Assembly (NCBI GenBank): GCA_038230535.1
Contig: JBBRNB010000006.1
Coordinates: forward strand, 10,531 to 74,530
Direction: 5' to 3'
Length of the DNA: 64,000 nucleotides
Source: Thermoanaerobaculia bacterium
GTDB taxonomy: Bacteria > Acidobacteriota > Thermoanaerobaculia > Gp7-AA8
The position numbers and the translations under genes were made by a program. Numbering within the stretch: the stretch's first letter is position 1; each line of letters opens with the position of its first letter. Shown one piece after another: positions 603 through 62,820 of the stretch. The notes below the pieces were generated by a model. That model did no database searches. It was given only the letters and a program-made list of their open reading frames with translations, and was not told where the DNA came from.

Positions 603-1274
603 CTACCGGTACACTACGCAGCCGTTCGCTTCCAACTGTGCGGCCGTCGCCACCGGCATCGAGAAAGTCGTGATCCATCTCAGGTCGAGCTTTTCGAGCC
701 GGGGAAGATCCAGCAGGCTTGACGGCAGATCGGTAATAGGGTTACCGCGAAGGTCGAGTTGTCGAAGAGTCCGCAGCCGTCCGATCGATTCCGGAAGGGT
801 AATGAGATTGTTGTTCCTCAGATGCAGTTCCCGCAAGCTCGAGAGCGAGCCAATGCAGTCCGGCAGGGATCCGAGCTCGTTGTCCGAGGCGCGAAGCTCG
901 ATCAGGCCGGTCATCCTGCAGATCGCCGCAGGCAATGCTGTGAATTCGTTCTCGCTGAGGTTGAGATAGCGCAGCCGGGTCAGGTTTCCCAGGGAGTCGG
1001 GCAAGGTCGCGAGCTCGTTGTCGTGCAGGTAGAGAAAGTCGGTGAGGTTCACGAGGCCGCTGATCGTTTCAGGCACGGACGTCAGCTCGTTGTGTCCGAG
1101 GTCGAGCATGCGGAGCCGGGTAAGCGCTGTGAGCCTGGGAGAAACGACAGTCAGTCCGTTGTCTGCCAGTACCAATGTCTCGAGATCGTGCAGACCCCAG
1201 ACGTAATCAGGAACGGTGCCGAGTCGCTGCTTCCAGAGACTCAGATGCCTGATCGGTTCGTCCTGACCGCTCAC
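603..1274 (-). CDS. leucine-rich repeat (LRR) protein
   Basis: Repeated LxxLxLxxNxLxxLP units ([26 protein letters not shown] etc.). The GTG start overlaps the gatB stop (GTGA). Confidence 0.75.
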
Positions 1275-2668
1275 GATCCGAGCAACTCCCGGAGAACCTC
1301 ATTCGCCAACTCCGCTTTTGCTTTGCCACTCGTCTCTTTCATCAGTTGACCGACCAGAAATCCGAAGAGCTGCGCTTTGCCGGCACGGTACTGCCCGACC
1401 TGCACGGCATTGCGCTCGATCACGCGCCGCGCCGCTTCACGGATGACCTCGGGGTCGCTGATCTGCGACAGCCCTTTGCGTTCGACGATCTGCTCGGGCG
1501 CTTCACCGCTCACGGACATGTCGTCGAAGACTTCCCTGGCAGACTTGCCGCCGATGGCGCCGCTGTCGATGAGGCGGATCAGCCGTCCGAGCATGCCGGG
1601 GGTCACGCGATAGCCGCTGATGCCGGCCTTTTGCTCGTTGAGAACGCGCAGCACGTCGTTGCGCACCCAGTTCGCCGCGGCGCGAGGGTTGCCGCTGGCA
1701 TCAGCGACAGCTTCGAAGTATTCGGCGAGCTGCCTCGACGTGACGAGCGCCTCGGCGTCGACGGCGCTGAGGGCGAAGTCGCGCTGGTAGCGCTCCGCGC
1801 GGAGCTGTGGCAGCTCAGGGACGGAGCGTGCGATCTCGTCGATCCACGCTCGTTCGACAACGAGCGGCGGCAGGTCGGGATCGGGGAAGTAGCGGTAGTC
1901 GTGTGCCTCTTCCTTCGAGCGCATCGGACGCGTTTCACCCGAGGCCGGATCGTACAACCGCGTCTCCTGAGTGATCGCGCCGCCCGATTCGAGTACACCG
2001 GTCTGACGTGCGATCTCGAAGTCGATGGCGCTGCGAAGGTAACGGAAGGAGTTGAGGTTCTTGATCTCCGTGCGCGTCCCGAGCTCAGCTCCCGGCTGCC
2101 GCACGGACACGTTGGCATCGCAGCGCAGAGAGCCTTCCTCCATGTTGCCGTCGCAGACGCCGGTATACATGAGGATCTGCCTCAGACGCGTGAGGTACGC
2201 ATCCGCCTCTTCAGCGGAGCGGATGTCGGGCTCGGAGACGATCTCGACGAGCGGTGTCCCGGCGCGGTTGAGATCGACGTGCGAAACCTCGCCGTGATGG
2301 ATCGACTTCCCCGCGTCTTCCTCCATGTGGATGCGCAGGATGCGTACACGGCCAATGCTTCCTCCCGTCGCGAGCGGCCGGTCGAATTGCGAGATCTGAT
2401 ATCCCTTGGGCAGGTCTGGGTAGAAGTAGTTCTTCCGCGCGAAAACGGATCGTTCGTGGACGGTGCATCCCGAGGCGATCGCGGCGCGGATGGCCAGCTC
2501 TACAGCCCGCCGGTTCAGCACCGGTAATGCTCCCGGATATCCGAGACAGACAGGGCAGACCTGCGTGTTCGGTGGCGCACCAAAGGAGGTGGAACAGCCG
2601 CAGAAGATCTTCGTGGCGGTGGAGAGGTGCGCGTGGACTTCGAGGCCGATGACTGCTTCCCGCGACAT
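1271..2668 (-). CDS. gatB: aspartyl/glutamyl-tRNA(Asn/Gln) amidotransferase subunit B
   Basis: N-terminus [10 protein letters not shown]...KIFCGC...[19 protein letters not shown]...IHMEEDAGK and a C-terminal GatB/YqeY-like tail. ATG at 2668. Confidence 0.9.
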
Positions 2669-2685
2669 TTCCTCGATTATGACAT

Positions 2686-2790
2686 TGGGAGTAGGGAGTG
2701 GGGAGTGGGGAGTGGAGTGGGGGGTGGGGGGTGGTGGGGGAGGTTCTGTTATTTCCTTTACGACCCCCTACCCCCCACTCCCCACCCCCG
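2686..2790. repeat. G-tract/C-tract palindrome (GGGAGTAGGGAGTGGGGAGTGG...GGTGGGGG / CCCCTACCCCCCACTCCCCACCCCC) in the divergent gatB/GGDEF promoter region
   Basis: Read directly: a run of GGGAGT-type units is followed by its reverse complement. The same motif family recurs at about 22275-22330, 35165-35245, 52462-52500 and 60515-60610. Confidence 0.65.
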
Positions 2791-2812
2791 GGCATACAAT
2801 CCCCGGCAACCC

Positions 2813-5074
2813 ATGTCCCGCGCGTTACTCCTTCGTATCTATATACTTACAGCAATCACGATAGCCGTCGGGGCGGTGATGTGGACCTTCAGCGTGGCGT
2901 CGTTGACAACTGCCGAGGCCTTGTTCTATGCGGGGCTGGTCGCGGTTGCGGCGTGGGTGCGCATCGAAGAGGGGACGCCCGGTTTCGAGGCGGCGGTCGT
3001 ATTCGCGGCCATTCTCATACTGCATGACCCATCGGTCGCATTGATCGCTGTGTTTGCCGGCAGCGCGGTGTACCACGTGGGTCACGATGCCGGCCGCCGC
3101 GTCTTCAGGCTCGATTCGTTGTCCCAGGCTGCAGAACAGGCGCTTTCGTACTACATCGTTGCGCTGCTGTACTCGTCGGCGGTGGCGAAGGATGCGCTGC
3201 CGATGGCGAAGGTCTCGGGCTACATCCTTCTCGTCGTCGGCTATCTCGTCGTGCACTTGCTTTTCACGGCGGTCAGGTATGCGCTCGGGGGACGCGGGGA
3301 CGCTCTCGACGTTCGCCGCATTCTGGCCGTCCAGGGTCAGATGCTGTTCGTGATGACGCCGGTCGTCGCGGCGGAGGTACTCTGCCACTCCCTTTATGGG
3401 ATGCCTGGTTTCGCGCTGGCCTTCCTGCCGGCGCTCGTGATCGCGTACGCGATGCGCAACGAGTCGGACGCGGCGCGGCAGAATGCGGAACTGGTCCGGC
3501 GCAACCGAGATTTGTCCATCCTCACGGAGAGCGCTTCGCAGATCCTTTCAGCCGAGGGCGATCAGGAGACGCTTCGGCGAATGGTGTCACTCCTCGGCCG
3601 GCTGGCCCGGCTGAAGGCGTGCGCGGTCGTGACGTGGGGACCGAACCCTGACACTCCGGCCACGGTCTATCGCCACGGAGCCTGTCAACCGGCCGACCAG
3701 GGGATTCTCGCCTGGGTCGAATCAGCCGGCTTCGCCGAGTCGGCTCCGAGCCGTGCCTTCATCTTTCACAACGATCAGCGGCGCTTCCCGTTGTCCGAGG
3801 GGAACGCCATCCAGGTACTGATCGGCATTCAGACGGTGGAGGTCATCTACGGAGTCCTCATCTACGAGACCGAAGAGCAGTCGATCCTGAAGAGCGGCAG
3901 CATCAATCTCCTGACGTTGCTGGCCAGTCAGACGGGGCTATCGCTTCAGGATCAATTGCTGCGGCGTGAGATGGAAGAGAAGAGGACGCAGCTCGAGGCG
4001 CAGGCGGCGACGAAGTCACTGATCCTCGAGGTCGCCCACGATCTCATCGGCTCGTTTGACGTCGACGCCATGCTGACACGCATCGCTCAGGCAATCAGCA
4101 CGGCGCTCGGTTTCGAGAAGGTGGTCTTCGCGCTCTACGACGTGAAACGTGCGGAGTTCACACGCCGCGCGCACGCCGGACTCGATGATGTTTGGGAGGA
4201 GATGAAAAAGAAGACCGTGGCTTCGAGCGAGATCACGCCATTCTTCGCGGGCGAGTTCAGCGTCTCGAACTCGTTCTTCATCTCGCACACCGTGCTGCAG
4301 CAGAGTGAGCACGGGTTCTTCGTCAGACATGATGACGATCTCCTGCGGCGCCCCGACGAGTGGCATGACAACGACAACCTGATCGTGCCGCTGGTCAGCG
4401 CGGAGGAGATGCTCGGCTACCTGTCCGTACGCGACCCGCATGACCGGCGCGTGCCGAATCTGGAGATGGTGCAGACGCTGGAGATCTTCGCGTTCCAGGC
4501 TGTGTCTGCGCTGCGGTCGGCGAGGCAGTACGATGAGATCCGCCGCCTTACCTTCATCGACGGGCTGACCACCGCGTTCAACCATCGCTACTTTCAGGAC
4601 GCGCTGGCGAAGGAGCTCAATCGCAGCGTGCGCACCAGCCGCCAGTTCGCGCTGGCCATGCTCGACATCGATAATTTCAAACGGATCAACGACACCTTCG
4701 GCCATCCTGCCGGCGACGAGATCCTCAAAGGACTGGTCGACGAAATGATGACGAACGCGCGCGACAGCGATGTCGTGGCACGCTACGGCGGTGAGGAGTT
4801 CGCCATCATCTTCGCCGACACACCAGCAGCGTCGGCGCGCGACGCGGCAAACCGGATGCGTGAGCTGATCGCCAGGCGCGAGCTCACAGTGACATCGATC
4901 GGACGGACGTTGCGAGTGACTGTGAGCATCGGTGTCGCCGTCTATCCCCACGACGGCGCAACGACGGCCGATCTGGTCGCCCGCGCCGATTCCGCTCTCT
5001 ACTACGCCAAGAAGAACGGCAGGAATCAGGTGGCGATGGCAGGGGAGTTGCCGGCGGAGAGTGCGCTGGCTTGA
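2813..5074 (+). CDS. membrane-anchored sensor diguanylate cyclase (N-terminal TM segments, GAF-like region, GGDEF domain)
   Basis: C-terminal RYGGEEFAIIF GG(D/E)EF motif and FNHRYF...LAMLDIDNFKRINDTFGH. Hydrophobic N-terminus. The start was moved to the ATG at 2813 (MSRALLLRIY) because the upstream part of the ORF only translates the G/C-tract repeat. Confidence 0.85.
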   Translation: MSRALLLRIYILTAITIAVGAVMWTFSVASLTTAEALFYAGLVAVAAWVRIEEGTPGFEAAVVFAAILILHDPSVALIAVFAGSAVYHVGHDAGRRVFRLDSLSQAAEQALSYYIVALLYSSAVAKDALPMAKVSGYILLVVGYLVVHLLFTAVRYALGGRGDALDVRRILAVQGQMLFVMTPVVAAEVLCHSLYGMPGFALAFLPALVIAYAMRNESDAARQNAELVRRNRDLSILTESASQILSAEGDQETLRRMVSLLGRLARLKACAVVTWGPNPDTPATVYRHGACQPADQGILAWVESAGFAESAPSRAFIFHNDQRRFPLSEGNAIQVLIGIQTVEVIYGVLIYETEEQSILKSGSINLLTLLASQTGLSLQDQLLRREMEEKRTQLEAQAATKSLILEVAHDLIGSFDVDAMLTRIAQAISTALGFEKVVFALYDVKRAEFTRRAHAGLDDVWEEMKKKTVASSEITPFFAGEFSVSNSFFISHTVLQQSEHGFFVRHDDDLLRRPDEWHDNDNLIVPLVSAEEMLGYLSVRDPHDRRVPNLEMVQTLEIFAFQAVSALRSARQYDEIRRLTFIDGLTTAFNHRYFQDALAKELNRSVRTSRQFALAMLDIDNFKRINDTFGHPAGDEILKGLVDEMMTNARDSDVVARYGGEEFAIIFADTPAASARDAANRMRELIARRELTVTSIGRTLRVTVSIGVAVYPHDGATTADLVARADSALYYAKKNGRNQVAMAGELPAESALA

Positions 5075-6440: not shown

Positions 6441-6940
6441 GGCACGCCTTCGGCGTGCGTTTTCTGCGCTGCGCGCGTTGTCGGCGTTGCACGCGTTTTC
6501 TGCGCTGCGCGCGTTTTCTGCGCTACGCGCGTTGTCGGTTGTCGGTTGTCTGCGGCCTGCGGGCCGCGTTGGCGCGTACGCTCTCGATCCTGGACAAACT
6601 CGATCAGGCCTTGCAGAGGGGCGGCGACACGGCGAATCGAACTTCGGAGCCGCCTCCACGTATCGTCGTCGATGTACTCGAGCCGGTGGGCGGCGATCAT
6701 CTGCGCCTGAACCTCGTACAACGACCCGCGCGCATGGCTGAGAAACTGCCGCCATTCACCGGGAGACAACCGTCCTTGTCCTTCTGCGATGTTGCTGACC
6801 ACCGACACAACTGCCCGCCGAAGCTGCTGCGTCAAACCGAATCGCTCGTCTCGCGGAAAGGCCTTGGTTGTCTTGTAGATAGCTACCATCAGATCGAGAG
6901 AGCGCTTGAATGTATCGAGATCTTCAAATGACCTGGTCAT
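6437..6940 (-). CDS. four-helix-bundle protein ('23S rRNA intervening-sequence protein' family), with a C-terminal tail encoded by the flanking repeat arm
   Basis: MTRSFEDLDTFKRSLDLMVAIYKTTKAFPRDERFGLTQQLRRAVVSVVSNIAEGQGR... matches the PF05635/TIGR02436-type family. ATG at 6940. The last roughly 45 aa (QPTTRVAQKTRAAQKTRA...) are a translation of the GCGCGAAGCGCAGACAAC repeat. Confidence 0.8.
   Translation of the reverse strand: MTRSFEDLDTFKRSLDLMVAIYKTTKAFPRDERFGLTQQLRRAVVSVVSNIAEGQGRLSPGEWRQFLSHARGSLYEVQAQMIAAHRLEYIDDDTWRRLRSSIRRVAAPLQGLIEFVQDRERTRQRGPQAADNRQPTTRVAQKTRAAQKTRATPTTRAAQKTHAEGVP
6442..6470 (+). terminator. putative Rho-independent terminator of the amidohydrolase gene
   Basis: GCACGCC-TTCG-GCGTGC stem-loop followed by GTTTTCT. 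Confidence 0.5.
6458..6557. repeat. left arm of inverted tandem-repeat element (units like CGCGTTGTCGG / TTCTGCGCTGCGCG)
   Basis: Tandem copies that are the reverse complement of the 7028-7155 arm. The same family occurs at 8275-8345 and 49586-49945. Confidence 0.75.
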
Positions 6941-7027: not shown

Positions 7028-7155
7028 CCATCCCACCGCCACTGACAACGCGCGAAACCGCAGACAACGCGCGAAGCGCAGACAACGCGTGAAGCCGCAG
7101 ACAACGCGCAAAGCGCAGACAACGCGTGAAGCCGCAGACAACGCGCAAAGCGCAG
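7028..7155. repeat. right arm of inverted tandem-repeat element (CGCAGACAACGCG(C/T)GAAGC x about 6)
   Basis: Roughly 22-bp units in tandem, complementary to 6458-6557. Together the arms bracket the IVS-protein gene. Confidence 0.8.
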
Positions 7156-8259
7156 CTATCTCACCCCCTCCGCCATCCTCATCACCTCGGCTTCCATCTC
7201 GGGACCGAATTCTGTCTTGATTTCGTTGATCCAGCCGGAGAGGAGCTCGTTGAGGATCTTGCGGATGACAGTGGGGTAGTCGCTGGTGCCGGAGGCGATG
7301 ACGTTGTTGAGGAGCTGGTCGAAGTCGAGGCGGGCTTCGTTCACCAGGTTCATGCCGGAGAGGTGGGGCGTGGTGCCGGCCGGAAGGTGGAAGATCAGGC
7401 GGTCCATGAAGTCGTAGATGTGATCGCCGATGCGCTGAAAGACCAGACTGAAGATCGATTCGTACATCCGGTTGTAGCGCTCGACGACTTCTTCCAGCTC
7501 GTACTCCGTCTCGGCCGCCGCGCGCTGTTCATTGACCGCGCTGCTTTCCGTTTCCGCGACCAGATTCACGCTGAGCAGCGCCCAGAGCGTACGGCAGGTG
7601 ACGAAGTTCGAGAAATAGCTGCGCGAGCAGACTTCCTCGACCGTGCCGGGCTCGGTGAGGAGGCTCAGTACATGGCTCTCTTCGTCCGTCAGCTCCAGAG
7701 AATAGGTCCGTGTGCCGGCGTCGGATACCTGCTGCAGAATGCGGTCGGGCCGCGCCAGACCGCGAATGATCAGCGACCAGAACTCGATGCTCTGTACTCC
7801 GTCGAGGATGAGGCGTTCGGTGTTCAGGGGCAGGGAGATGATCTCCGGCGGAAACTCGCTCGTGAACTCCATGCTGTAACTGCCGGTGCGGTAGCTGACG
7901 GCGTTGAGCACGATCGTGCTCACCTGGCGCTCCACGGCGCGCAACAGCTCGTCAGGCTGCAGGTAGCCAAGCTCGCAGAGCAGTGCGCCGATGCGCCGGG
8001 CCACGACGATCCGGTCCATGGCGAGGTTGTATTGATGAAGCGACAACTCGCCGCTGCGGAGCAGAATCTCGCCAAGCCCCATGTCCGGATCGGAGCTCGA
8101 CGCGAAGATGATCTTCCCCTCGTTGAAGTAGATGACATCGTTCCGGCCGATCGCTTCCAGCGACACGATGCCGGTCTCACCACTCCGAAGCAGCGTCCGG
8201 AAGAGATCCGGAACAGTCGTCTCCGCAAGGGTTCCCTGGATACTCAGACCGTCGGACAT
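7156..8259 (-). CDS. DUF4388 (PatA-like N-terminal domain) protein
   Basis: N-terminus GTLAETTVPDLFRTLLRSGETGIVSLE is the DUF4388 signature. ATG at 8259. Lies 132 bp downstream of the 8392-9684 gene on the same strand. Confidence 0.7.
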   Translation of the reverse strand: MSDGLSIQGTLAETTVPDLFRTLLRSGETGIVSLEAIGRNDVIYFNEGKIIFASSSDPDMGLGEILLRSGELSLHQYNLAMDRIVVARRIGALLCELGYLQPDELLRAVERQVSTIVLNAVSYRTGSYSMEFTSEFPPEIISLPLNTERLILDGVQSIEFWSLIIRGLARPDRILQQVSDAGTRTYSLELTDEESHVLSLLTEPGTVEEVCSRSYFSNFVTCRTLWALLSVNLVAETESSAVNEQRAAAETEYELEEVVERYNRMYESIFSLVFQRIGDHIYDFMDRLIFHLPAGTTPHLSGMNLVNEARLDFDQLLNNVIASGTSDYPTVIRKILNELLSGWINEIKTEFGPEMEAEVMRMAEGVR

Positions 8260-8274
8260 GGCGCGATTATATTG

Positions 8275-8345
8275 CGCTGGCGTATTGCGCTTCGCGCGTT
8301 ATCGGTTGCCGGTTGGTTGCGCGGCTGGGCGCCGCGCGGGCGGTT
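8275..8345. repeat. solo arm of the GCGCTTCGCGCGTT...GGTTGCCGGTTG repeat family
   Basis: TGCGCTTCGCGCGTTATCGGTTGCCGGTTGGTTGCGCGG resembles the arms at 6458-6557 and 49590-49730. Confidence 0.5.
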
Positions 8346-8391
8346 GGACTTTACGGTGCAGCTTCCCGGCAAGAGCCGAAGTTTCGCCGTC

Positions 8392-9684
8392 CTACGGCGC
8401 CTTCGCCAGTAATTCGTCGAGTTTCTGGAGTTGGCCGGTCATCGAGTCCACCATCCACGATGGTGCCGTCCTGGCGATGTTCTCGCGCAATTTGTCCGCT
8501 TCGTCCTTCTGGCCGCTGCCGGCAAGTGCCTCGACGAGGGACGCCGTAACCCAGAAGGTCTCTTCCGGGTCATGTTTTCCGTCGTCAACTTTGATGCCGG
8601 AAGCGAGCATCGCCCGGGCGATGTCGATGACGCGGCGACGGATGCGCTCGGCCTGCACCACGTCCGCGTTCGCCTCCCGCGGATCGGCGGTATTGGCGGC
8701 GCGTACGTTGAGCATGAAGGCGAGATTGATCCCGTTGTAGTAGTCGTTCTTGACGTAGAAGCCTTTCTCGTAAGCCCAGATCGACTCCTCGAGGTCCGCG
8801 GCTTCGCCTCTCAGTTCGAACAGCCGCTTGTGAATCGCGCCCCAGAGGCCGAGCGTTTCGGGATCGGTGGTCGTGCGTGGGTGCAGCTCTTCGAGAATCT
8901 TGCGGGCCTCGAGGAGCGCCGTGACGGGATCCGGCTTCTTGCTTTTGTACGTCGCGAGCGCGAGTTGCTGCCGGAAGAATGCGTCGTTGGGACGCTTCTC
9001 GACCAGGCGTCTCAGAGAGCGCACGGCCGAGCTCCACTCCGAGTCCGCCTTTGCCTCGCGATACATGGTCATCAACTCGCTGATGCTGTCGTCCGGGACA
9101 GAGGCGGGGGTAGCGGCCGCCACAGCGAACGACTTGCCCGAGTCGGCCACCGCGGTAGCCTCGAGAACCGGCGCCACGCCCGCATTCCAGGCGCGCAGTC
9201 TCGGCAGGAACGTGTAGATGGGGCTGTCAATGTCGGGGTTCGCGAGTAATTTGTGGATCGCGTCCTTCAACTCCGCACGGACGGTCTCGGCATGCTCGGC
9301 ATCGATCCCTTTGCCGAGGTGCTCGTAAGGGCGGATCACGATATGCGAAAGGTCGAACGGAAACTTGAACTGCGATTCCGCCATGATGATGGTGGTGTGC
9401 GGGCGGAGCGCGTGGCGTACGCCGAGCTCATAGATCGCATTCGGATTGGCGGTGGAAATGTCGGCGACGACGATGTCGGCGGTGAGCAGCAACTCGTACA
9501 TCGGCACGTCGATCAGCCCGGAGTGCTTGATGTCGTCGGCCCGGATACATTCGAGTCCCGCCTCTTCGACCGCTTTCCTGATGATGATGCGATAGGTCTT
9601 ATCGAGATCGAGGGTGCGCCCGGTGGCGAGGTCCGTCTTCTCGCCGAACCCCATCACGACGAAGCATTTCTTTTTTTCATCCAT
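8392..9684 (-). CDS. hypothetical protein: N-terminal Rossmann-like domain resembling nucleoside 2-deoxyribosyltransferase/TIR-like folds, plus a C-terminal TPR-like helical region (tentatively DUF4071/ASK1-N-terminal-like)
   Basis: N-terminus KKKCFVVMGFG...ADIVVADISTANPNAIYELGVRHALRPHTTIIM parallels the D(S/T)G..FE.G.A.ALGKP core of nucleoside deoxyribosyltransferase-like domains. The C-terminal 250 aa are helical and repeat-like. The track ORF starts at a TTG at 9696; the first ATG is at 9684. Confidence 0.6.
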   Translation of the reverse strand: MDEKKKCFVVMGFGEKTDLATGRTLDLDKTYRIIIRKAVEEAGLECIRADDIKHSGLIDVPMYELLLTADIVVADISTANPNAIYELGVRHALRPHTTIIMAESQFKFPFDLSHIVIRPYEHLGKGIDAEHAETVRAELKDAIHKLLANPDIDSPIYTFLPRLRAWNAGVAPVLEATAVADSGKSFAVAAATPASVPDDSISELMTMYREAKADSEWSSAVRSLRRLVEKRPNDAFFRQQLALATYKSKKPDPVTALLEARKILEELHPRTTTDPETLGLWGAIHKRLFELRGEAADLEESIWAYEKGFYVKNDYYNGINLAFMLNVRAANTADPREANADVVQAERIRRRVIDIARAMLASGIKVDDGKHDPEETFWVTASLVEALAGSGQKDEADKLRENIARTAPSWMVDSMTGQLQKLDELLAKAP

Positions 9685-9795
9685 GTGATCCGGCAATGTA
9701 GCCTCAGGATGGAGTTAAGTCCAGCGACGGAGGTTGAGGAGAACGCTTCATTGATGACTGGCAAAAATTGCCGAACTGCGTTGTCAGCGGCAGAG

Positions 9796-10068
9796 GCGAT
9801 GCCTAAATGCTAGGGATCGATGCCTATTAACTAGGGATCGATGCCTAAGGATTAGGAATCGATGCCTATGAATTAGGGCTTGATGCCTGAAAGTTAGGAA
9901 TCGATGCCTAGTACTTAGAGATCGATGCCTAGGAGATAGGGATCGATGGCTAAAAGTCAGGGATCGATGCCTGTTAGATAGGAGTTGATCCCTAAAAGTT
10001 AGGGGTCGATGCCTAAGAGATAGACATCGATCTAGAAATCATGGATCGATCCCGGATCGATATTTGAG
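9796..10068. repeat. AT-rich tandem array, about 12 copies of a 21-bp period (16-bp core TAGGGATCGATGCCTA plus a roughly 5-nt variable spacer); iteron-like
   Basis: Read directly: TAGGGATCGATGCCTAttaac TAGGGATCGATGCCTAaggat TAGGAATCGATGCCTAtgaat ... The last copy is the perfect palindrome GGATCGATCC. Every unit contains GATC. Local GC is far below the window average. Lies 110-380 bp upstream of the start of the 8392-9684 gene. Confidence 0.85.
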
Positions 10069-10124
10069 ACTCACAGACGTGCGGCATCTCCTTCAGCCGT
10101 CTTGACCGGAGCGGTGGCCGCGTC

Positions 10125-10640
10125 GTGCCGCTCCGGCAGAACGCCGGCGATGATGGCGCGTTCATTTATGTTCCGAAGGCGCTGGATGCCAGCGTCGACA
10201 TGGAGCTGCGCGTGCGCGATCTTTCACGCGACAACAAAGGGCTCGGCAGCGAGGTCCCGATCGTGCCTGCGACGGCCTTCAGTAACCCCGTCCGGCTCAT
10301 CGACATCCCGAACGATCCGCGCTTCCGAGTCTCTCTCCGCGTCTACGGCGCTACGAGTACGAGTCCGGTCCCCATTCACTATCGAGTGCTGTCTGGCGGC
10401 TCAAACTCCATCGTGGCAGCAGGGGATGCGGCGCTGTCGATCTACCCGTTCGTCGGAGACCTGCCGGTGAATCCTTCGTATGCCCAGCTCGACCCGATGA
10501 GCAACGCGGTCCGGGCCTCGAGCGAGACCAGTCTCCGGATCGAAGTATCGACGCCAGGGTCGCAAACGCCACTCTGGGCGATGGCGTCGATCACGAACAG
10601 CGATACGCAACAGGTAACGATCATCTCGCCGCGACGGTAG
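10125..10640 (+). CDS. hypothetical protein (no recognisable domain)
   Basis: 171-aa ORF with host-like codon usage, beginning right after the AT-rich array. No signal peptide and no motif recognised. Confidence 0.4.
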   Translation: MPLRQNAGDDGAFIYVPKALDASVDMELRVRDLSRDNKGLGSEVPIVPATAFSNPVRLIDIPNDPRFRVSLRVYGATSTSPVPIHYRVLSGGSNSIVAAGDAALSIYPFVGDLPVNPSYAQLDPMSNAVRASSETSLRIEVSTPGSQTPLWAMASITNSDTQQVTIISPRR

Positions 10641-10723
10641 CCGAGAGACATCGATGATGGACAACCCTTGGAGACCGCCCTTCGAGGATCGACCTGTGCC
10701 AGAATCACACCCCGGAGGATGCC

Positions 10724-10921
10724 ATGGGCCAGGACGAAGAAGAAGACAAGACGATCTATAAGGCCGTGCTCAACCACGAGGAGCAGTACTCAATCTGGCC
10801 GGCGGATCGTGAGAATCCGCTCGGATGGACCGACGCCGGGAAGAGCGGTACCAAGGCCGAGGTCCTCGACTACATCAAGGAAGTGTGGACTGATATGCGT
10901 CCTCTGAGCGTTCGGAAATAG
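10724..10921 (+). CDS. MbtH-like protein
   Basis: [19 protein letters not shown]...[13 protein letters not shown] is the MbtH family signature. GGAGGA RBS before the ATG at 10724. Confidence 0.9.
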
Positions 10922-10924
10922 ATG

Positions 10925-11050
10925 AATGAGATGGGGTAGGCAGAAAGCAGAAAGCAGAAAGCAGAAAGCAGAAATGCTGCGCTACGCCCCACGTTTCGGC
11001 GTAGCGCAGCATTTCTGCCTTCTGCTTTCTGCCTTCTGCTTTCTGCTTTC
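10925..11050. repeat. hairpin element with (GCAGAAA)n / (TTTCTGC)n arms; convergent terminator between the MbtH gene and the 11051-11941 gene
   Basis: GCAGAAAGCAGAAAGCAGAAAGCAGAAAGCAGAAATGCTGCGCTACGCC-loop-GGCGTAGCGCAGCATTTCTGCCTTCTGCTTTCTGC... Confidence 0.8.
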
Positions 11051-11941
11051 TCAACCCCTCTCTAACTCCGCCCGATCCCAACCACCCGCGGCGGCGGCGG
11101 CGGCGTAGGTAGACTGGCAGAAGCGGAGGAGGGCATCCTCCGGGTCGGACGACATGCGGACGGCCTCATACGGGAGGACGTACTCGGAGAAGGCGTCGCT
11201 GTAGAAAGCTTCCGCCGGTTCGACGCGGGCGTCCTTGAAGCCGGCCGGCTGCGGGGCGGCGTAGGCGTAGAACGCCGGCGCGGGGAAGGCGCCGCCGCCG
11301 GGCCACCATCCGCAACTGCTGACCTCGTGTGAGTAAGCTTCGCGCGTGATCGGATCGGCGTTCGGATTGTCCGGGGCGCGGCGGCCGGAGAAGCGGGTGA
11401 CGGCCATGTCGAAGCTGCCCCAGAAGAAGTGTACGGGGCTGCTCTTGCCGATGAACGACGCGCGGAACTGGTTCAACAGGCGGTCGGTGAAAATCAGGAT
11501 GCGCCGGAAGCGTTCGACGGCGTCTCGGTCGTATGATGTGTGCTCATGGTCTTCGGCGAACGGAATCGGGTTGTCGATCTCGACCGGGACCGGCCAGATC
11601 TTGACGTCGATGCCGCACTCATGGAGACGCGCCATCGTCTCGGCGTAGAAATCGGCGACGGAGCGAGGGACGAGCGGCACCCGTCCGTGGCGGCCGTCGC
11701 TGCAGCGGATGACGAGTTGGTGATCGATGAAGTCGAATTCGCAGTCGAAGACGCGGCCGCGATACGGGATCGCCGATGTGGTCAGGCCCCTCGCGCTGAC
11801 GTAGAGCGCAGTGTCCCACCAGTGGTTCACCCGAGGAGCGAGAGCGAGGCGGACCTTGCCGGCGATCTGCGTCCACATGTGCAGAGTGTCGCAGGTCGGC
11901 TTCCAATCTGGCAGCGGCAGGGGATCAAGATCGTTGATCAT
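11051..11941 (-). CDS. conserved hypothetical protein (possibly DUF5996-like; family assignment uncertain)
   Basis: 296-aa ORF with ATG at 11941 (MINDLDPLPLPDWKPTCDTLHMWTQIAGKVRL...). No catalytic motif recognised. Confidence 0.65.
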   Translation of the reverse strand: MINDLDPLPLPDWKPTCDTLHMWTQIAGKVRLALAPRVNHWWDTALYVSARGLTTSAIPYRGRVFDCEFDFIDHQLVIRCSDGRHGRVPLVPRSVADFYAETMARLHECGIDVKIWPVPVEIDNPIPFAEDHEHTSYDRDAVERFRRILIFTDRLLNQFRASFIGKSSPVHFFWGSFDMAVTRFSGRRAPDNPNADPITREAYSHEVSSCGWWPGGGAFPAPAFYAYAAPQPAGFKDARVEPAEAFYSDAFSEYVLPYEAVRMSSDPEDALLRFCQSTYAAAAAAGGWDRAELERG

Positions 11942-12013
11942 GGGAAAGATTATGAACCTGGCAGAGCGATTGCGATGATAGGAGACAGCAGTGAACGGCC
12001 CAAAGGAGGCAAC

Positions 12014-13045
12014 ATGAACAGCACAAAGAGGTTAGCAGCGCAGATGGCCGGAGTGGTTGCGATTGCGACTCTCTTCGGAACGTCCGCTTTTGCGGACAGT
12101 CGTCACTCAGATGCGACGGAGCGCGATCGTTCCCACCATTCCGACAGGGGCGACAGCCGCGACAACGGCAGACATTCGAATGACCGGCGCGACAACAACA
12201 GCAATCAGTCGCAGACCTTTGAACGGCGCGATTTCCGGGGAAGTGCGCCGCAGACGTTCGAACGGCGCGATGTCCGGGGAAGTGCGCCGCAGACGTTCGA
12301 ACGGCGCGATTTCCGGGGAAGTGCGCCGCAGACCTTTGAACAGCGCGATATCCAGAGAAGCGCGACGCAGACGTTCGAGCGGCGCGATGTCCGCGATAAC
12401 GGGACGCGGTCGTTTGACCGCCGCGAACCCGCCAACAACTTCCGGAATGAGAGCCGCTCGCAGGCCGGGAACTTCCGCGGCAACGAGCGCTGGCAGGGTT
12501 CCCGGGATGACAACCGTTGGCAGGGTTCCCGGAATGACCGCCGGGAGGGCTCTCGAAATGAGCGTCCGTCGTTCGACGATCGTGGCCGCCGCAGCTCGTT
12601 CGTCGAGGGACGGGTCAAGCGCTTCGAACACGAACGGGGTGGTTTCCGCGTGTGGGTCGACGGCGGCCGTTTCCCGGTCTGGATTCCTGAAGCGCGCATC
12701 AATCTCTTCCCCCACCTGCGCGTCGGCGTGTCGCTCCGCTTTGGCGGCTACTACGATCCAGCCGGCTATCTCGATGCGTATGACTACTACGGCGGCCCGG
12801 CGTATGCCGGCGCGCCTGTCTACAGCTCCGGCTACCTGCGGGGAACCGTGGAGACTGTCGACTTTCGCCGCGGCACGCTGGTCATTCGCGATGAGACTTC
12901 CGGCGCCTTCGTAACGGCGGTCATCCGCGACCGCAGTCTGGAAACCCTGCGGCCCGGCGACTACGCCGAGATCGCCGGCGACTGGACCCGCAGCGGTCTC
13001 TTCGAAGGACTGCGTCTCGAAGATGTGCAAGGTGGGCGGTACTGA
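12014..13045 (+). CDS. secreted low-complexity protein with 5 tandem 13-aa repeats (QTFERRDFRGSAP) and a C-terminal globular domain
   Basis: AAAGGAGG RBS and ATG at 12014. Signal peptide MNSTKRLAAQMAGVVAIATLFGTSAFA. 39-bp nucleotide repeats at about 12200-12400. The upstream part of the track ORF is antisense to the neighbouring gene. Confidence 0.7.
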   Translation: MNSTKRLAAQMAGVVAIATLFGTSAFADSRHSDATERDRSHHSDRGDSRDNGRHSNDRRDNNSNQSQTFERRDFRGSAPQTFERRDVRGSAPQTFERRDFRGSAPQTFEQRDIQRSATQTFERRDVRDNGTRSFDRREPANNFRNESRSQAGNFRGNERWQGSRDDNRWQGSRNDRREGSRNERPSFDDRGRRSSFVEGRVKRFEHERGGFRVWVDGGRFPVWIPEARINLFPHLRVGVSLRFGGYYDPAGYLDAYDYYGGPAYAGAPVYSSGYLRGTVETVDFRRGTLVIRDETSGAFVTAVIRDRSLETLRPGDYAEIAGDWTRSGLFEGLRLEDVQGGRY

Positions 13046-14072: not shown

Positions 14073-14240
14073 TGTCAGTGGATCAGTAGGTCAGTGGATC
14101 AGTGGATCAGGAACATGCTGGTCGTTGGGTCCTGATCCTGATTCTCTGGTCAACTCATCAAGTCGTTGTTTCGATCAGAAACGAGAGGTCTTCTGATCCT
14201 GATCCACTGATCCACGAACCACCGATCCACTCACTGAATC
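14073..14240. repeat. hairpin element of the GATCAGTG / CACTGATC family
   Basis: GTCAGTGGATCAGTAGGTCAGTGGATCAGTGGATCAGG...loop...CTGATCCTGATCCACTGATCCACGAACCACCGATCCACTCACTG. Confidence 0.8.
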
Positions 14241-30394: not shown

Positions 30395-30590
30395 TAGTCG
30401 ATCAGTGGGCTGGTCGATCAGTAGATTGGTCGATCAGTAGATCAGAAACATGAAACCTGATCCTGATCCACTGATCCACCGCGGTCCCTGATCCACTGAT
30501 CTACTGATCCACTGATCCACTGATCCACTGATCCACTGATCCACTGATCCACCGCGGTCCCTGATCCACCGATCACTGATCCACAGCATC
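30395..30590. repeat. large hairpin element of the GATCAGTG / CACTGATC family
   Basis: GTCGATCAGTGGGCTGGTCGATCAGTAGATTGGTCGATCAGTAGATCAG...loop...(CCACTGATC)x6. Confidence 0.85.
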
Positions 30591-31451
30591 CACCGCCTTC
30601 AAGAACCCAATCATCAACTCATTCACTTTCCCTGGCGCATCGGTCTGGACGAAGTGACCAGCGTCGGGGACGTGCTCGAGACGGAGGTCGGGGACGTACT
30701 CGCTGAAATCGCGCAGAGTCTCCTTCGTGAAAAACGGATCGAGATCGCCCCAGATCATCAAGGTCGGGATGTCGATGCGGCGAATCAAGCCGCGCATCGG
30801 TTTGCGGTGCCTCATGGCGCGGTAGTAGTTGGCCATGCCGGTGAGCGCGCCGGGCTTCGCCCATGCCTCGACATACCTCTCGATCTCCTCGGAGGTGAAG
30901 CAGCCGAGTCGTGACATGGCACGGCGCAGGACGGCGTAGCGGAAACGGCGCAGGACGAATTCCGCCAGCCATGGCAGATGGAAAAGGAGCTGATACTTGG
31001 CCCGCCACTTCTGCCGCGCCGACCGCCGCAGCTCGCGCAGGTATGTCACCGGATGCGGCGAATTGAGGATGATGAGACGGCTGACCAGCTCAGGATAGAG
31101 CATCGCCGTCAGCCAGGCCACGGCGCCACCCCAGTCATGGCCTGCCAGCGCGCACGGTGCGTCGCCACTCTGCGCGATCACGCCCGCGATGTCTTTGGCA
31201 AGCTCAGTAAGGCGGTAGGCGTCAATTTCCTGAGGCCTGGATGAGTCGTTGTAGCCCCGCAGGTCGACTGCGATGACGTGAAAGCCCGCCGCGGCGAGCA
31301 CCGGAATCTGATTCCTCCACGAATACCAGAACTCCGGGAAACCATGCAGCAGCACGATGAGCGGACCGCTCCCCGCCTCGACATAGTGGATGGTCATGCC
31401 GCCGACCTCGCACGTACGGTCGGTGACACTCAGTTCCGAAACCAGCTGCAT
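30573..31451 (-). CDS. alpha/beta hydrolase (epoxide hydrolase-like)
   Basis: HGFPEFWYSWR, GHDWGG nucleophile elbow and a C-terminal DAGHFV catalytic His. ATG at 31451 (MQLVSELS). The 162-codon upstream ORF extension translates the 21-bp repeat as heptads and was not annotated as coding. Confidence 0.85.
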   Translation of the reverse strand: MQLVSELSVTDRTCEVGGMTIHYVEAGSGPLIVLLHGFPEFWYSWRNQIPVLAAAGFHVIAVDLRGYNDSSRPQEIDAYRLTELAKDIAGVIAQSGDAPCALAGHDWGGAVAWLTAMLYPELVSRLIILNSPHPVTYLRELRRSARQKWRAKYQLLFHLPWLAEFVLRRFRYAVLRRAMSRLGCFTSEEIERYVEAWAKPGALTGMANYYRAMRHRKPMRGLIRRIDIPTLMIWGDLDPFFTKETLRDFSEYVPDLRLEHVPDAGHFVQTDAPGKVNELMIGFLKAVDAVDQ

Positions 31452-31611: not shown

Positions 31612-31905
31612 AAACGCCTGGCGCACACTGTCAGCCGGTGGCGCGCACTGTGAGCCGGGTGGCGCGCACTGTGAGCTGGGCGGCGCGCACTGTGAGCCGG
31701 GTGGCGCGCACTGTGAGCCGGGTGGCGCGCACTGTGAGCCGGGTGGCGCGCACTGTGAGCCGGGTGGCGCACACTGTCGGCCGGGCGGCGCACACTGTGA
31801 GCCGGGTGGCGCGCACTGTGAGCCGGGTGGCGCACACTGTCGGCCGGGCGGCGCACACTGTGAGCCGGGTGGCGCACACTGTGAGCCGGGCGGCGCACAC
31901 TGTGA
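31612..31905. repeat. 21-bp tandem repeat x about 14 (GGCGCGCACTGTGAGCCGGGT and variants)
   Basis: Read directly. The period is exactly 21 bp and sits in frame with the downstream hydrolase ORF, giving PAHS(V/A)R(H/R) heptads on the minus strand. Confidence 0.9.
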
Positions 31906-46439: not shown

Positions 46440-46590
46440 GTGTGAATCAGTGGGTCAGTGGATCAGTGGTCAGTGGTCAGTGGGTCAGTGGGTCAGTGGG
46501 TCAGTGGGTCAGTGGACGGACAGAAACAGCATTCTCCCGATCTACCGATCACGAATCGACTGATCCACTTGATTACTGCCTCATCGCAAC
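46440..46590. repeat. GTCAGTGG-family hairpin inserted between dxr and rseP
   Basis: (GGTCAGTGG)x8 ... GATCTACCGATCACGAATCGACTGATCCACTTGA. Confidence 0.8.
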
Positions 46591-49585: not shown

Positions 49586-49945
49586 AGCTTTGTGGTTAAT
49601 TGCACTTTGTTGTCTGCGCTTCGCGCGTTGTCGGTTGCCGGTTGTCTGCGCTTCGCGCGTTGCCGGTTGCCGGTTGTCTGCGCTTCGCGCGTTGCCGGTA
49701 GTCGGTTGTCTGCGCTTCACGCGTTGCCGCACCGAGAGGGGCGCGAAGGTGTAACCATCGCCCGACGGGCCGCTAACGCCCAAAGGGCAGACAACGTGCG
49801 AAGCGCAGACAACGCCCAAAGGGCAGACAACGCGCGAAGCGCAGACAACGCCCGAAGGGCAAACAACGCCCAAAGGGCAGACAACGCGTGAGCGCAGACA
49901 ACGCCCGAAGCGCAGATAACCGACAACGCGCGAAGCGCAGACTAC
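49586..49945. repeat. cargo-less palindromic element of the GCGCGAAGCGCAGACAAC family (tandem-repeat arms in inverted orientation around a roughly 50-bp centre)
   Basis: Left arm (GTTGTCTGCGCTTCGCGCGTTGCCGGTTGCCG)x4, right arm (GCAGACAACGCGCGAAGCGCAGACAACGCCCAAAGG)x4. Same family as the arms flanking the IVS-protein gene at 6458-7155. Confidence 0.85.
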
Positions 49946-60981: not shown

Positions 60982-62700
60982 ATGCGTCTCCGGATCATCG
61001 TGCCGCTTCTCATCGCGCTGCTCGGCTCTCCGCAGCTCGCGCGCGGTTTCAGCGGCCCGTGCTGCGATTTCTGCACCGATCAATACCAGCAGGAAGGACA
61101 GTTCCCTTACTTCGAGGTGATCCGCACACGCCGGTTGATCATCAACGGAGACATCGTTGGTGGTCAGGGGTGGAAGCGCGTCTTCGAGAGTTGCGAGCAG
61201 GCGGGGCGGGTCAACATCACCGCATCGACCGAGGTCACTGTTGTCGCACGCGCCTACCTCGAGATTGCTGAGCCGAGCACGCCGGGCGCCGGCATCGAGT
61301 ACCGTTGGCTGCTCGACGACGTGCCCGTCGGTCCGACGTTTCATTTTCTTGCTGGCCGGGCCGGGTTCCCGCAGGGGGATGACATCAACATCGTTCTCCC
61401 GCAAGTACCTGCCGGACAACATCGCGTGGCCATCGACGGGCGCGTGACCGGCGACGGCCGTATCAGTTTCCGGCTCCTCTTCATCACCGCGCAAGGGTTT
61501 CCATCCGCCGCGTTTCCGAGTGATTCGCTGATCGTCTCGAGCAGCAGGACGATTGGCAGCGATTGGACCGAAGTGAGTCCTTCGCTCGGCCTTTCTCTGC
61601 CGCAGTCAGCGCACCTCTACTTCCAGGGGTATGTCGAATTCGCAGGCGGCGAGACAGTCAATTTCCGTTACGTGGTCGATGGTATTCCTCTGACGCCCTT
61701 GCGCGTCGTCATCCCGCCTGGTGGTGGCCTCAGCCTCTGGGATCACCTCGGCGACCCCATCGCGGCCGGCGCGCACAGCGTCCGGCTGGAGGGGCGCGCG
61801 GACTCTCCGGCGGTGATGACGCTCGCGCAGGTCGAAGCCGCGACGGGACCGGCGACGATCCAGAACAAGCCGTTGCCAGTGTTCAATGCCGATGTGAACG
61901 GCTCGCTCGGTACGGATCATCAGCCGCTCAACTGCCTCATCCTCGCCGAGGGGGCTTCCGGAGGGACGGGTGGGTTGGGCGGGACGCCCGCGTGCGGTAA
62001 GTACGACCTGCTATTCGATGCCCAACTGCCGGCGGCACCGCTCACATCGTCGGGGAGCGCCTTCGATGATTACACCGCGTTTGGCGACGGCTTTGTCGAG
62101 ATCGAAAACCGGAGCGGCACGAACGGAGTGGTCACGCTGACCGTCGAAGCGATCTACGAGGATGCGAGGGCGGGCGCCTGCAACGCGCTCGTCGAAGCGG
62201 CAGATACGGCATGCGCGAATCCGAGTGCCTGTTCGACGGCCGACTTCACGCTCGTCGAGTTCGCTGTACCGCCCGGCCGCACGCAGAAGTTCTTCTATGT
62301 CGATCCGATTCACTGGGGCTCTTTGGCGCCGAATCGCATTCGTCTCTGGGCGCGCTCGCAGAACGGCTGCGGCTCGGCTCCTGTCGGCCTGACATTCGGC
62401 CGCAGCCGCCTGGGCATGCAGCTCGTTCCAGCCGGCAACGGATCCTGTTTCTCCGCGCACGCGACGGGGCGCGCCGCGGCACCAGCGGTATCGGTATCGG
62501 CAGCGGGCTCGAAGGTTCCGCTCCGACCCCATCAGCGTGACCGTGCCACCGATCGCGCCGCGACGGCGAAGTGCGGGGAATTGATGCTGTCGGTCGATCA
62601 GTGGATTGGTGGATCAGTGGATCAGTGGATCAGTGGATCAGTGGATCAGTTGATCAGTGGGGCAGTGGTCAATGGTCAGTGGGGTCAACGACCCAGTTGA
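60982..62700 (+). CDS. secreted Cys-containing hypothetical protein whose C-terminus is encoded by GATCAGTG repeats
   Basis: Signal peptide MRLRIIVPLLIALLGSPQLARG. ATG 4 bp after the dnaE stop. The last roughly 35 aa (SVDQWIGGSVDQWISGSVDQLISG...) translate the hairpin arm. Confidence 0.6.
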   Translation: MRLRIIVPLLIALLGSPQLARGFSGPCCDFCTDQYQQEGQFPYFEVIRTRRLIINGDIVGGQGWKRVFESCEQAGRVNITASTEVTVVARAYLEIAEPSTPGAGIEYRWLLDDVPVGPTFHFLAGRAGFPQGDDINIVLPQVPAGQHRVAIDGRVTGDGRISFRLLFITAQGFPSAAFPSDSLIVSSSRTIGSDWTEVSPSLGLSLPQSAHLYFQGYVEFAGGETVNFRYVVDGIPLTPLRVVIPPGGGLSLWDHLGDPIAAGAHSVRLEGRADSPAVMTLAQVEAATGPATIQNKPLPVFNADVNGSLGTDHQPLNCLILAEGASGGTGGLGGTPACGKYDLLFDAQLPAAPLTSSGSAFDDYTAFGDGFVEIENRSGTNGVVTLTVEAIYEDARAGACNALVEAADTACANPSACSTADFTLVEFAVPPGRTQKFFYVDPIHWGSLAPNRIRLWARSQNGCGSAPVGLTFGRSRLGMQLVPAGNGSCFSAHATGRAAAPAVSVSAAGSKVPLRPHQRDRATDRAATAKCGELMLSVDQWIGGSVDQWISGSVDQLISGAVVNGQWGQRPS

Positions 62701-62820
62701 TCAGTTGACCTGATCCACCGATAACCGATCCACTGATCACCGATCACCGATCCACCGATCCACCGATCACCGATCCACTGATCGACTGACCCACTGATCC
62801 ACTGATCCACCGATCGACAT
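62590..62820. repeat. large GATCAGTG / CACTGATC-family hairpin
   Basis: (GGATCAGTG)x6 ... loop ... (CCGATCACCGATCCAC)-type units and CCACTGATCC copies. Confidence 0.85.

Follow-up and report, generated by a model that had tools for sequence, protein, structure and literature searches.

The stretch of DNA analyzed here, 64 kb of contig JBBRNB010000006.1 from a Thermoanaerobaculia bacterium (assembly GCA_038230535.1; the whole stretch is hereafter the window), is ordinary housekeeping chromosome, with genes for GatB, DnaE, Dxr, UppS, CdsA, RseP, TruA, PdxJ and ribosomal protein S1. It also carries two minus-strand genes and a repeat array that an earlier note, made from the sequence alone, had joined into a single cassette. 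These are the gene of a 367-aa PATAN (DUF4388) protein (7156..8259), the gene of a protein with a nucleoside 2-deoxyribosyltransferase (NDT)/TIR-like N-terminal domain and a tetratricopeptide repeat (TPR)-like region (8392..9684), and a tandem array with a period of 21 bp (9797..10031). The array lies 113-348 bp upstream of the ATG (9684) of the minus-strand gene next to it. Judged by its sequence relatives, the protein encoded by 8392..9684 is a homolog of ThsI and an orphan acidobacterial member of the type VIII Thoeris effector family.

The ThsI-like gene and type VIII Thoeris

The product of the ThsI-like gene (8392..9684, minus strand; 430 aa from the ATG at 9684, or 434 aa from an alternative TTG start at 9696) was studied by Pfam, BLASTP and structure and fold searches. 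An N-terminal alpha/beta domain (aa 1-150; 9235..9684, minus strand) has an invariant glutamate, E86, within a YELGVRHA motif, and is followed by a TPR-S (Tetratricopeptide Repeats-Sensor) domain (PF20308, E 3.6e-26, aa 221-329 of the 434-aa form; 8710..9036, minus strand). The family MAP3K_TRAF_bd (PF13281, formerly DUF4071) was also matched, at E 1.3e-10 and 41.3 bits against a cut-off of 24.1, over profile positions 129-270 only.

An AlphaFold model built with 55 homologs contained a confident helical-repeat region of ~230 aa, with predicted local distance difference test (pLDDT) values >90 from residue 200. The top PDB match of the whole model (Foldseek) was the cryo-EM structure of ASK1, 8qgy_A, over 470 aligned columns, with TM-scores of 0.34 and 0.20, low values to which the uncertain relative orientation of the domains contributes. 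When residues 1-160 were modelled separately (109 sequences, predicted TM-score (pTM) 0.75), the model matched the cytidine monophosphate (CMP) N-glycosidase MilB (Foldseek E 3.2e-5), NDT, TIR-STING and DNPH1. The earlier note's description of an NDT/TIR-like domain fused to a TPR-like region, and its tentative DUF4071/ASK1-N-terminal call, were thus borne out. Sequence searches of the PDB with the protein and with a profile of its N-terminal domain gave no useful match, and a homolog search with the N-terminal domain alone returned fragments of the ThsI-like family only, with no new architecture. We take the YELG glutamate (E86) to correspond to the nucleophile of DNPH1/NDT enzymes, for which the profile search of the PDB gave no match and hence no direct alignment.

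Homologs of the protein numbered >5,600 at E <=0.001 among the scored candidates, and the best 120 of them were 57-82% identical, bore the name 'TRAFs-binding domain-containing protein' and came from Thermoanaerobaculia, Vicinamibacterales and Segetibacter. PADLOC gave a weak match to a TIR effector model, and neither PADLOC nor NCBIfam provided a named system for the protein, because both libraries predate ThsI. No mention of the family was found in papers on DUF4071, TRADD-N and DUF4062 TIR-like NADases.

Type VIII Thoeris was defined in a December 2025 preprint on TIR-based immunity, in which activation of the effector ThsI, described as 'CMP hydrolase and TPR', is ascribed to canonical cyclic ADP-ribose (cADPR) from the TIR protein ThsB (bioRxiv 10.64898/2025.12.03.692087). 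According to the same preprint, cell growth stops when the system is activated by cADPR, and type VIII systems occur mainly in Pseudomonadota. A role of the ThsI TPR domain in TIR signalling was predicted by Burroughs and Aravind (2020), as that paper is cited in bioRxiv 10.64898/2025.12.03.692087. The preprint also lists the defensive type VIII system of Yersinia enterocolitica Ye11102_2 (its Table S2) and gives the sequence of the ThsB TIR domain (its Table S1).

The Yersinia ThsB TIR domain was 100% identical to an open reading frame (ORF), L137:11250-11636, on an IMG/VR contig recovered with the family alignment. A second ORF of this contig, L137:9944-11230, ends 5 bp upstream of the ThsB gene and is therefore, by virtue of the adjacent ThsB identical to Table S1, the validated Yersinia ThsI. 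In BLASTP the window protein was 41% identical to Yersinia ThsI over 391 aa (E 8e-88), the two being far more alike in their first 120 residues. The YELGVRHA motif around the invariant Glu86 is common to both, and Yersinia ThsI has the same Pfam pair, TPR-S (2.6e-17) and MAP3K_TRAF_bd. A gene that had been flagged as coding for an unknown NDT/TIR-like-TPR protein can now be named as that of a ThsI-type Thoeris effector. The membership in a conflict system that the earlier note had suspected was upheld in this way, and its statement that the arrangement was not a described one no longer holds as to the protein.

In some other genomes, ThsI homologs are found with TIR genes. Those on Proteobacterial plasmids adjoin one or two TIR genes and, in one case, a DUF4231 gene as well, and in L139 a ThsB-like ORF lies directly downstream of the ThsI homolog; a megablast of the Yersinia ThsI-ThsB DNA against plasmids gave no match. 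In the window, Pfam found no TIR family among the ~50 genes called across the 64 kb with a crude GC3 filter, by which a small TIR ORF could be missed. In addition, tblastn of two type VIII ThsB domains, and of the TIR-WD40 proteins encoded beside close homologs, gave no match in the window. We regard the ThsI-like gene as an orphan because no TIR gene was found in the 64 kb.

Ten other distinct loci with close homologs (74-82% identity) presented ten different contexts. The homolog adjoins a TIR_2-WD40 gene at two of these (L001 and L145) and has TIR_2 genes near it at one (L133), and a TIR gene was not present at the remaining seven (L002, L006, L007, L128, L132, L147 and L148). The large TIR_2-WD40 neighbors (L001 2061-4970; L145 6893-9874) represent a partner type unlike the small ThsB of the validated systems. 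In one lineage (L128-L130; 9046-11302 in L128), the ThsI homolog was observed 8 bp downstream of two inosine-uridine nucleoside hydrolase genes together with a xanthine dehydrogenase gene.

By homology to the type VIII systems, the TPR-S region of the window protein would act as the sensor of canonical cADPR that a TIR protein produces upon infection. The MilB/NDT-like N-terminal domain would then hydrolyze nucleotide, as a 'CMP hydrolase'-type N-glycosidase with the invariant Glu86, and starve the phage; both the cADPR sensing and the nucleotide hydrolysis are predictions for this protein. As the 64 kb yielded no TIR gene, any signal would have to come from a TIR protein encoded elsewhere, or the orphan clade would act alone. 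The clade of ThsI-like proteins is very large and highly conserved (>5,600 matches; Acidobacteriota, Bacteroidota and other phyla) and usually has no TIR partner. Either these soil bacteria use cADPR-type signalling in trans, across the genome, or the clade has a TIR-independent role, and either answer would extend type VIII Thoeris beyond the Proteobacteria.

The PATAN block and the rearrangement junction

The second gene of the proposed cassette was confirmed as a DUF4388 gene, on the same (minus) strand as the ThsI-like gene and 132 bp downstream of it. Its PATAN/DUF4388 domain (PF14332) spans aa 8-161 (E 7.8e-20, 71.6 bits against a cut-off of 25), and the C-terminal ~200 aa had no Pfam family. 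By eye, an MshEN-like tandem motif was seen at aa 60-112 (GLGEILLRSGELSLHQYNLAMDRI ... RIGALLCELGYLQPDELLRAVERQ). The NCBIfam model of the MshEN cyclic di-GMP (c-di-GMP) signature, NF053729 (tandem RLGxx(L/I/V)(L/I/V)xxG...Q), matched the protein at E 7.5e-5 and 22.4 bits, below its cut-off of 38. A GGDEF-GAF cyclase gene (2627-5074) lies two genes away from the PATAN gene and is kept both in the window and in L149, the locus of an 85%-identical PATAN ortholog. The MshEN-like motif and this conserved nearby gene suggest that the PATAN protein is a candidate c-di-GMP receptor.

Orthologs of the PATAN protein in Thermoanaerobaculia were 66-85% identical and of similar length (most 363-372 aa), and by these orthologs, too, the window is assigned to that class of the Acidobacteriota. 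The conserved block comprises the genes for PATAN, a 23S-rRNA-IVS protein, an M20 peptidase, GGDEF-GAF and GatB, and L149 is colinear with the window from 8338 to 3 at 76-85% DNA identity; blastn aligned L149 2499-4263 to window 8338-6515. The synteny thus ends near 8338, within the 132-bp gap (8260..8391, no strand assigned) between the ThsI-like and PATAN genes. At the L149 PATAN locus both the ThsI homolog and the array are absent, and three unrelated genes stand there instead. Conservation between the window and L149 extends ~80 bp beyond the PATAN start codon on its upstream side, so the PATAN gene has its own upstream region.

The earlier note had proposed that public genomes be searched for conservation of the two genes as a pair. 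The pair was present in none of the ten other ThsI-homolog loci, and so, in the loci compared, the ThsI-PATAN 'gene pair' is found in this organism only. Together with the L149 block, which is complete without ThsI or array, this argues against the three features being one cassette.

Two side observations concern this block. Repeats of a dispersed family, GACAACGCG / GCGCTTCGCGCG / GTTGTCGG, lie on the flanks of the 23S-rRNA-IVS protein gene and in other intergenic regions, with copies at window 6453-6533, 7044-7155, 8274-8336 and 49609-49729 and at L149 2388-2480 and 3659-3709. The gene of a leucine-rich-repeat protein (603-1274, minus strand) between GatB and a FadL/TodX-type gene is not at that place in L149 and looks like a small lineage-specific insertion.

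On the other side of the ThsI-like gene, a 5'-truncated ORF of 171 aa (10125..10640, plus strand) starts at the edge of the array. A search of representative proteins and tblastn identified its product as the C-terminal ~165 residues of a family that has no Pfam match and comprises mostly proteins of 250-375 aa, with 1,791 representatives at E <=0.001. In tblastn of full-length homologs, homology began at 10095-10152, and no N-terminal remnant was found upstream. The ThsI-like gene and the array form a ~1.7-kb segment between the synteny break and the truncated gene, with the array placed at a rearrangement junction.

The 21-bp array

Tandem Repeats Finder (TRF) reported the array (9797..10031, no strand assigned) with a period of 21, 11.2 copies, 72% matches and zero indels, and an independent repeat search found nine register-true copies at a spacing of exactly 21 bp. 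The 11 units agree with the roughly 12 copies counted previously, as does their make-up, a 16-bp imperfect palindrome, TAGGGATCGATGCCTA, plus a variable 5-nt spacer. In the core, 14 of 16 positions are self-complementary. At <=3 mismatches TAGGGATCGATGCCTA had 18 matches in the window, 17 of them inside the array, against 0.4 expected from shuffles. A degenerate tail of overlapping GATCGATC palindromes follows (10032..10062, no strand assigned), delimited from the sequence, its inverted repeats and the GATC/ATCGAT positions.

The GC content (GC) of the array is ~0.45. The lowest GC of the 64-kb window, taken in 250-bp stretches, falls on it (0.44 vs 0.62 overall), as would be expected from the description of it as the most AT-rich segment. 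An independent Logan assembly, L005 (run SRR19962015), is identical to window 7126-10967 with the array included, so the array is not a one-off assembly artefact. Stops occur in all six frames, and neither an ORF spanning the array nor a small gene in its region was found. Rfam 15, searched at a permissive E-value, gave no family at gathering score, only sub-threshold miRNA-precursor matches caused by repeats. RNA folding of the intergenic region of the array gave z = -6.4; this was rejected as evidence of an RNA, such a value being expected from tandem palindromes.

The core had been described as containing GATC, and a Dam/SeqA-like reader of that site had been suggested as a binding protein. 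The palindromic core is real, but only 5 of the 11 units keep an intact in-register GATC, compared with 9 of 11 for TCGAT. The least-kept part of the core is the 'GA' left of its center, and its best-kept columns are the TAGG/CCTA arms. In the window as a whole GATC was not enriched, with 671 observed vs 675 expected once trinucleotide content was allowed for (Markov-2). A separate compositional feature of the window is that CTAG is strongly under-represented (17 observed vs 62 expected, Markov-2), with 5 of the 17 within the 250-bp array.

These counts bear on one reading of the array, in which it would serve a plasmid or an integrated element as the iterons of a replication origin or as a sopC/parC-like partition centromere, or would be the target of a Dam/SeqA-type GATC reader. 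Its ~21-bp direct repeats, its AT-richness and its regularly spaced palindromic sites would fit such an element. However, the scanned genes of the window include no Rep, ParA/ParB or integrase gene, the context is one of housekeeping genes, no DnaA box was found within 9000-10800, and the cumulative GC skew has no turn at the array. BLAST of the array against plasmids and phages gave no match. For the GATC reader in particular, the few in-register sites and the lack of enrichment tell against it, and SeqA is known from Gammaproteobacteria only. We consider this reading scarcely credible.

An indication of function came from comparing the parts of the unit. Mismatches to the consensus occupied 23 of 55 spacer cells and 16 of 176 core cells (Fisher p 1.7e-7), and 9 distinct spacers occur among the 11 units. 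The same contrast of kept core and free spacer was present in the arrays of L028, L034, L053, L106 and L107, in per-column statistics that leave out the indel-containing arrays, in which register is lost (L007, L008, L047, L086, L092, L030 and L045). Homogenization of whole units by unequal crossing-over does not give a core/spacer contrast, and for this reason we believe the core to be under constraint. With the two-turn phasing and the dyad symmetry, this constraint makes cooperative binding of a dimeric protein to one face of the DNA the most economical reading, and the array may influence two divergent promoters, in a role that would not be specific to this gene pair.

The alternative that the array is a neutral satellite of a palindromic unit, generated by replication slippage and unequal recombination and having no binder and no function, has several observations in its favor. 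Tandem arrays are present in 11 of the 29 (38%) intergenic regions of >=50 bp in the window, with periods of 7, 8, 16, 18, 21, 32, 37, 42 and 45 bp; arrays at orthologous positions evolve in concert (L092/L107, below); and the exact unit is unique to this organism. However, homogenization acts on whole units, yet the spacers here are near-random and the cores are kept, and the strict 21-bp register without indels over 11 units also suggests constraint. We judge a functionless satellite unlikely, while giving it real weight.

Searches beyond the window showed that the exact array is restricted and its general type widespread. The exact pattern of two adjacent good units had two chance matches only in 185,579 GTDB representative genomes, both within coding regions. 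A scan of metagenomes for three GATCGAT at 21-bp phase gave at least 120 loci. Among the 120 listed, 70 had 21-bp TRF arrays, many of the arrays being imperfect palindromes in high-GC contigs, and 0 of the 120 had a gene related to the ThsI-like gene, the PATAN gene or the truncated ORF. The palindromic arrays looked at in detail were all intergenic (16/16), with every orientation class represented. A sub-family with the 18-bp palindrome GAA-N2-GATCGAT(C/G)-N2-TTC at 21-22 bp spacing was found on eight independent soil/metagenome contigs (L001, L011, L013, L034, L047, L056, L086 and L118). Arrays hold the same position beside orthologous genes in related genomes in two cases, L092 11897-12249 with L107 974-1292 and L013 4362-4724 with L086 4366-4662. 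Between L092 and L107 the sequence of the unit has changed in every copy, a case of concerted evolution. The window itself has a second 21-bp array (31619-31905; 13.7 units, GC 0.75) with a 15-bp imperfect palindrome, GCGCACACTGTGAGC, ~180 bp upstream of an alpha/beta-hydrolase gene.

Against this background we assessed the cassette proposed by the earlier note, in which the array is a dedicated operator or iteron-like promoter element of a co-regulated two-gene conflict cassette (NDT/TIR-like-TPR plus DUF4388). Its position upstream of the first gene, the two genes on one strand 132 bp apart, the kept cores phased at two helical turns and a 14/16 copy of the core inside the ThsI-like gene are consistent with that model. 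The comparative data are not: at the ten other homolog loci the ThsI homolog never has PATAN as its neighbor or an array upstream, L149 keeps the PATAN upstream region and gene block without ThsI or array, 0 of the 120 listed phased-GATCGAT loci encode either protein, and neither the GTDB representative genomes nor plasmids or phages contain the exact array. The model, and with it the array as a dedicated element of the ThsI-like gene, is very improbable and, by these sequence comparisons, already largely refuted.

Arrays were nonetheless present beside two of the ten other ThsI homologs. That of L001 (6351-6655; unit GCGAAGGGATCGATCTGTTCC, 14.5 copies) starts 25 bp past the stop codon and has the GGGATCGAT core in common with the array of the window, and that of L007 (6305-6529) has 10.9 copies of a 21-bp unit sharing GCACACTGTG, a core found also in the second array of the window. 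Both begin 18-25 bp 3' of the stop codon of the homolog, on its downstream side, unlike the array studied here. In all, 3 of 11 ThsI-homolog loci, the window included, have a 21-bp array within ~115 bp of the gene.

A further reading treats the array as a local silencer or insulator, either brought along by a horizontally acquired ThsI gene or evolved to serve it, with a cooperative repressor or an AT-preferring nucleoid protein keeping a potentially toxic orphan effector off. The lowest GC of the window, cores kept relative to spacers, the ~1.7-kb segment that holds both gene and array, the arrays of L001 and L007 and the growth arrest on cADPR activation of type VIII Thoeris (bioRxiv 10.64898/2025.12.03.692087) would all suit a silencer. 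However, the L001 and L007 arrays are downstream of the gene rather than upstream, at least seven other homolog loci are free of arrays, similar arrays stand beside unrelated genes in all orientations, and no protein that binds the array was identified. We hold this explanation to be distinctly unlikely. A broader version, in which strictly phased 21-bp palindromic arrays with kept cores and free spacers are undescribed protein-bound cis-elements (silencers, insulators or nucleoid anchors) that are common in Acidobacteriota and other high-GC soil bacteria and gather beside mobile defence genes such as solo ThsI, is in our view a long shot.

Based on the homology, folds, synteny, searches without a TIR gene, array distribution and core/spacer contrast observed here, we consider it probable that the ThsI-like gene, the PATAN gene and the array are neighbors by accident of genome rearrangement and not one system: an orphan ThsI effector, a vertically conserved PATAN block and a lineage-typical array. 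The array is one of the many intergenic tandem repeats of this genome, situated at a synteny break beside a truncated gene, and falls into a loose and widespread class, that of 21-bp arrays built of ATCGAT-centered imperfect palindromes. It is probably bound by a protein, judging by its sequence, and would not be tied to the ThsI-like or PATAN genes; any regulatory effect would follow from that binding. For arrays beside ThsI homologs we offer a non-specific account, in which mobile defence genes insert into dispensable intergenic DNA that has been rearranged, and arrays accumulate in such DNA.

Several points weigh against the accidental-neighbor reading. Arrays of >=10 21-bp units adjoin the ThsI homologs of L001 and L007, and ~195 kb of DNA flanking ThsI-homolog loci contained one other such array only. 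If arrays fell at random among intergenic regions, their placement beside ThsI homologs would have p ~0.04 by our estimate, which leaves out the window because of ascertainment bias. A genuine association of ThsI with 21-bp arrays is therefore suggested but not established. Outside the array, the window has a single 13-mer match to the array unit, AGGGATCGATGCC (9298..9310, minus strand), which lies inside the ThsI-like gene, against about 0.04 such matches expected per window; it falls on the codons K-G-I-D-A, which are conserved, and the L001 homolog gene has no comparable match to its own neighboring array. As to binding, no DNA-binding protein for the array was identified, sigma-70 promoter scans around the array and between the two genes found none, and the variation among columns is partly explicable by higher-order duplication, TRF also reporting a 42-bp period at the array. 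As to the effector, a ThsI-like function is drawn from 41% identity to a system tested only in Proteobacteria, and a small TIR ORF may have escaped the GC3 filter. The clade in Acidobacteriota shows unusually high conservation (60-83% identity) and in most cases has no TIR gene as a neighbor, and it may do something different.

The array, then, is not a new regulatory cassette. The core/spacer contrast and the many metagenomic kin point to an uncharacterized class of elements, which we regard as a modest lead and not a finding. Two leads remain from this work, one being the large, conserved clade of ThsI homologs that stand alone and the other the phased palindromic arrays as a class.

Other repeats were observed in the window. 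GATC-containing 8-bp arrays (CTGATCCA, GATCAGTG and GATCCACC) fill the intergenic stretches 30463-30593, 62596-62682 and 62712-62815, and related 8-bp arrays without GATC are found at 14075-14110 (TCAGTGGA) and 46447-46515 (TCAGTGGG). At 10940-11051, GCAGAAA x5 and TTTCTGC x5-6 face each other between the convergent MbtH-like and DUF5996 genes, making up a long perfect hairpin; it is this hairpin that produced the spurious Rfam miRNA-precursor matches. A protein with no Pfam match (11990-13045, plus strand) has 39-bp (13-aa) coding repeats rich in Arg and Asp, FERRD[FV]RGSAPQT, at 12210-12426.

Comparison with known systems

The array was compared with several kinds of repeat. CRISPR arrays have repeats of roughly 23-47 bp and unique spacers of roughly 21-72 bp, and this identity was rejected for an array with a 16-bp core and 5-nt spacers. 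Plasmid iterons, F sopC and R1 parC are protein-binding repeat arrays, and the array resembles them in its phased direct repeats, the short palindrome in each unit and its AT-richness. It differs from them in having no Rep/Par genes nearby, in its chromosomal housekeeping context and in matching no plasmid or phage. Like the repetitive extragenic palindromes and bacterial interspersed mosaic elements (REP/BIME; PMC3733652), it consists of short imperfect palindromes in intergenic DNA. Unlike those elements, it is strictly tandem at 21 bp and in a single orientation, has no GTAG or CGTC head and is not dispersed, its sole other copy in the 64 kb being an intragenic near-match.

The PATAN protein shares its domain with the PatA-type PATAN proteins (PF14332; Makarova et al. 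2006, as cited in PMC12448109). It differs from them in having no receiver domain and in carrying the MshEN-like tandem motif. The N-terminal region of human ASK1/MAP3K5 (8qgy), a thioredoxin-binding domain followed by TPRs, is the top fold match of the whole ThsI-like model, with MAP3K_TRAF_bd above cut-off. The window protein differs from ASK1 in having no PH or kinase domain, and its Pfam match covers only part of the profile.

The closest comparison is with ThsI itself. The window gene differs from the described systems in having no adjacent ThsB TIR gene, in its host, which belongs to the Acidobacteriota and not the Pseudomonadota, and in the large conserved clade (60-83% identity), mostly without a TIR neighbor, in which its product falls. 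What the window protein shares with ThsI is the whole plan of the effector, a MilB/NDT-like 'CMP hydrolase' domain and then TPR-S, together with the same Pfam signature.

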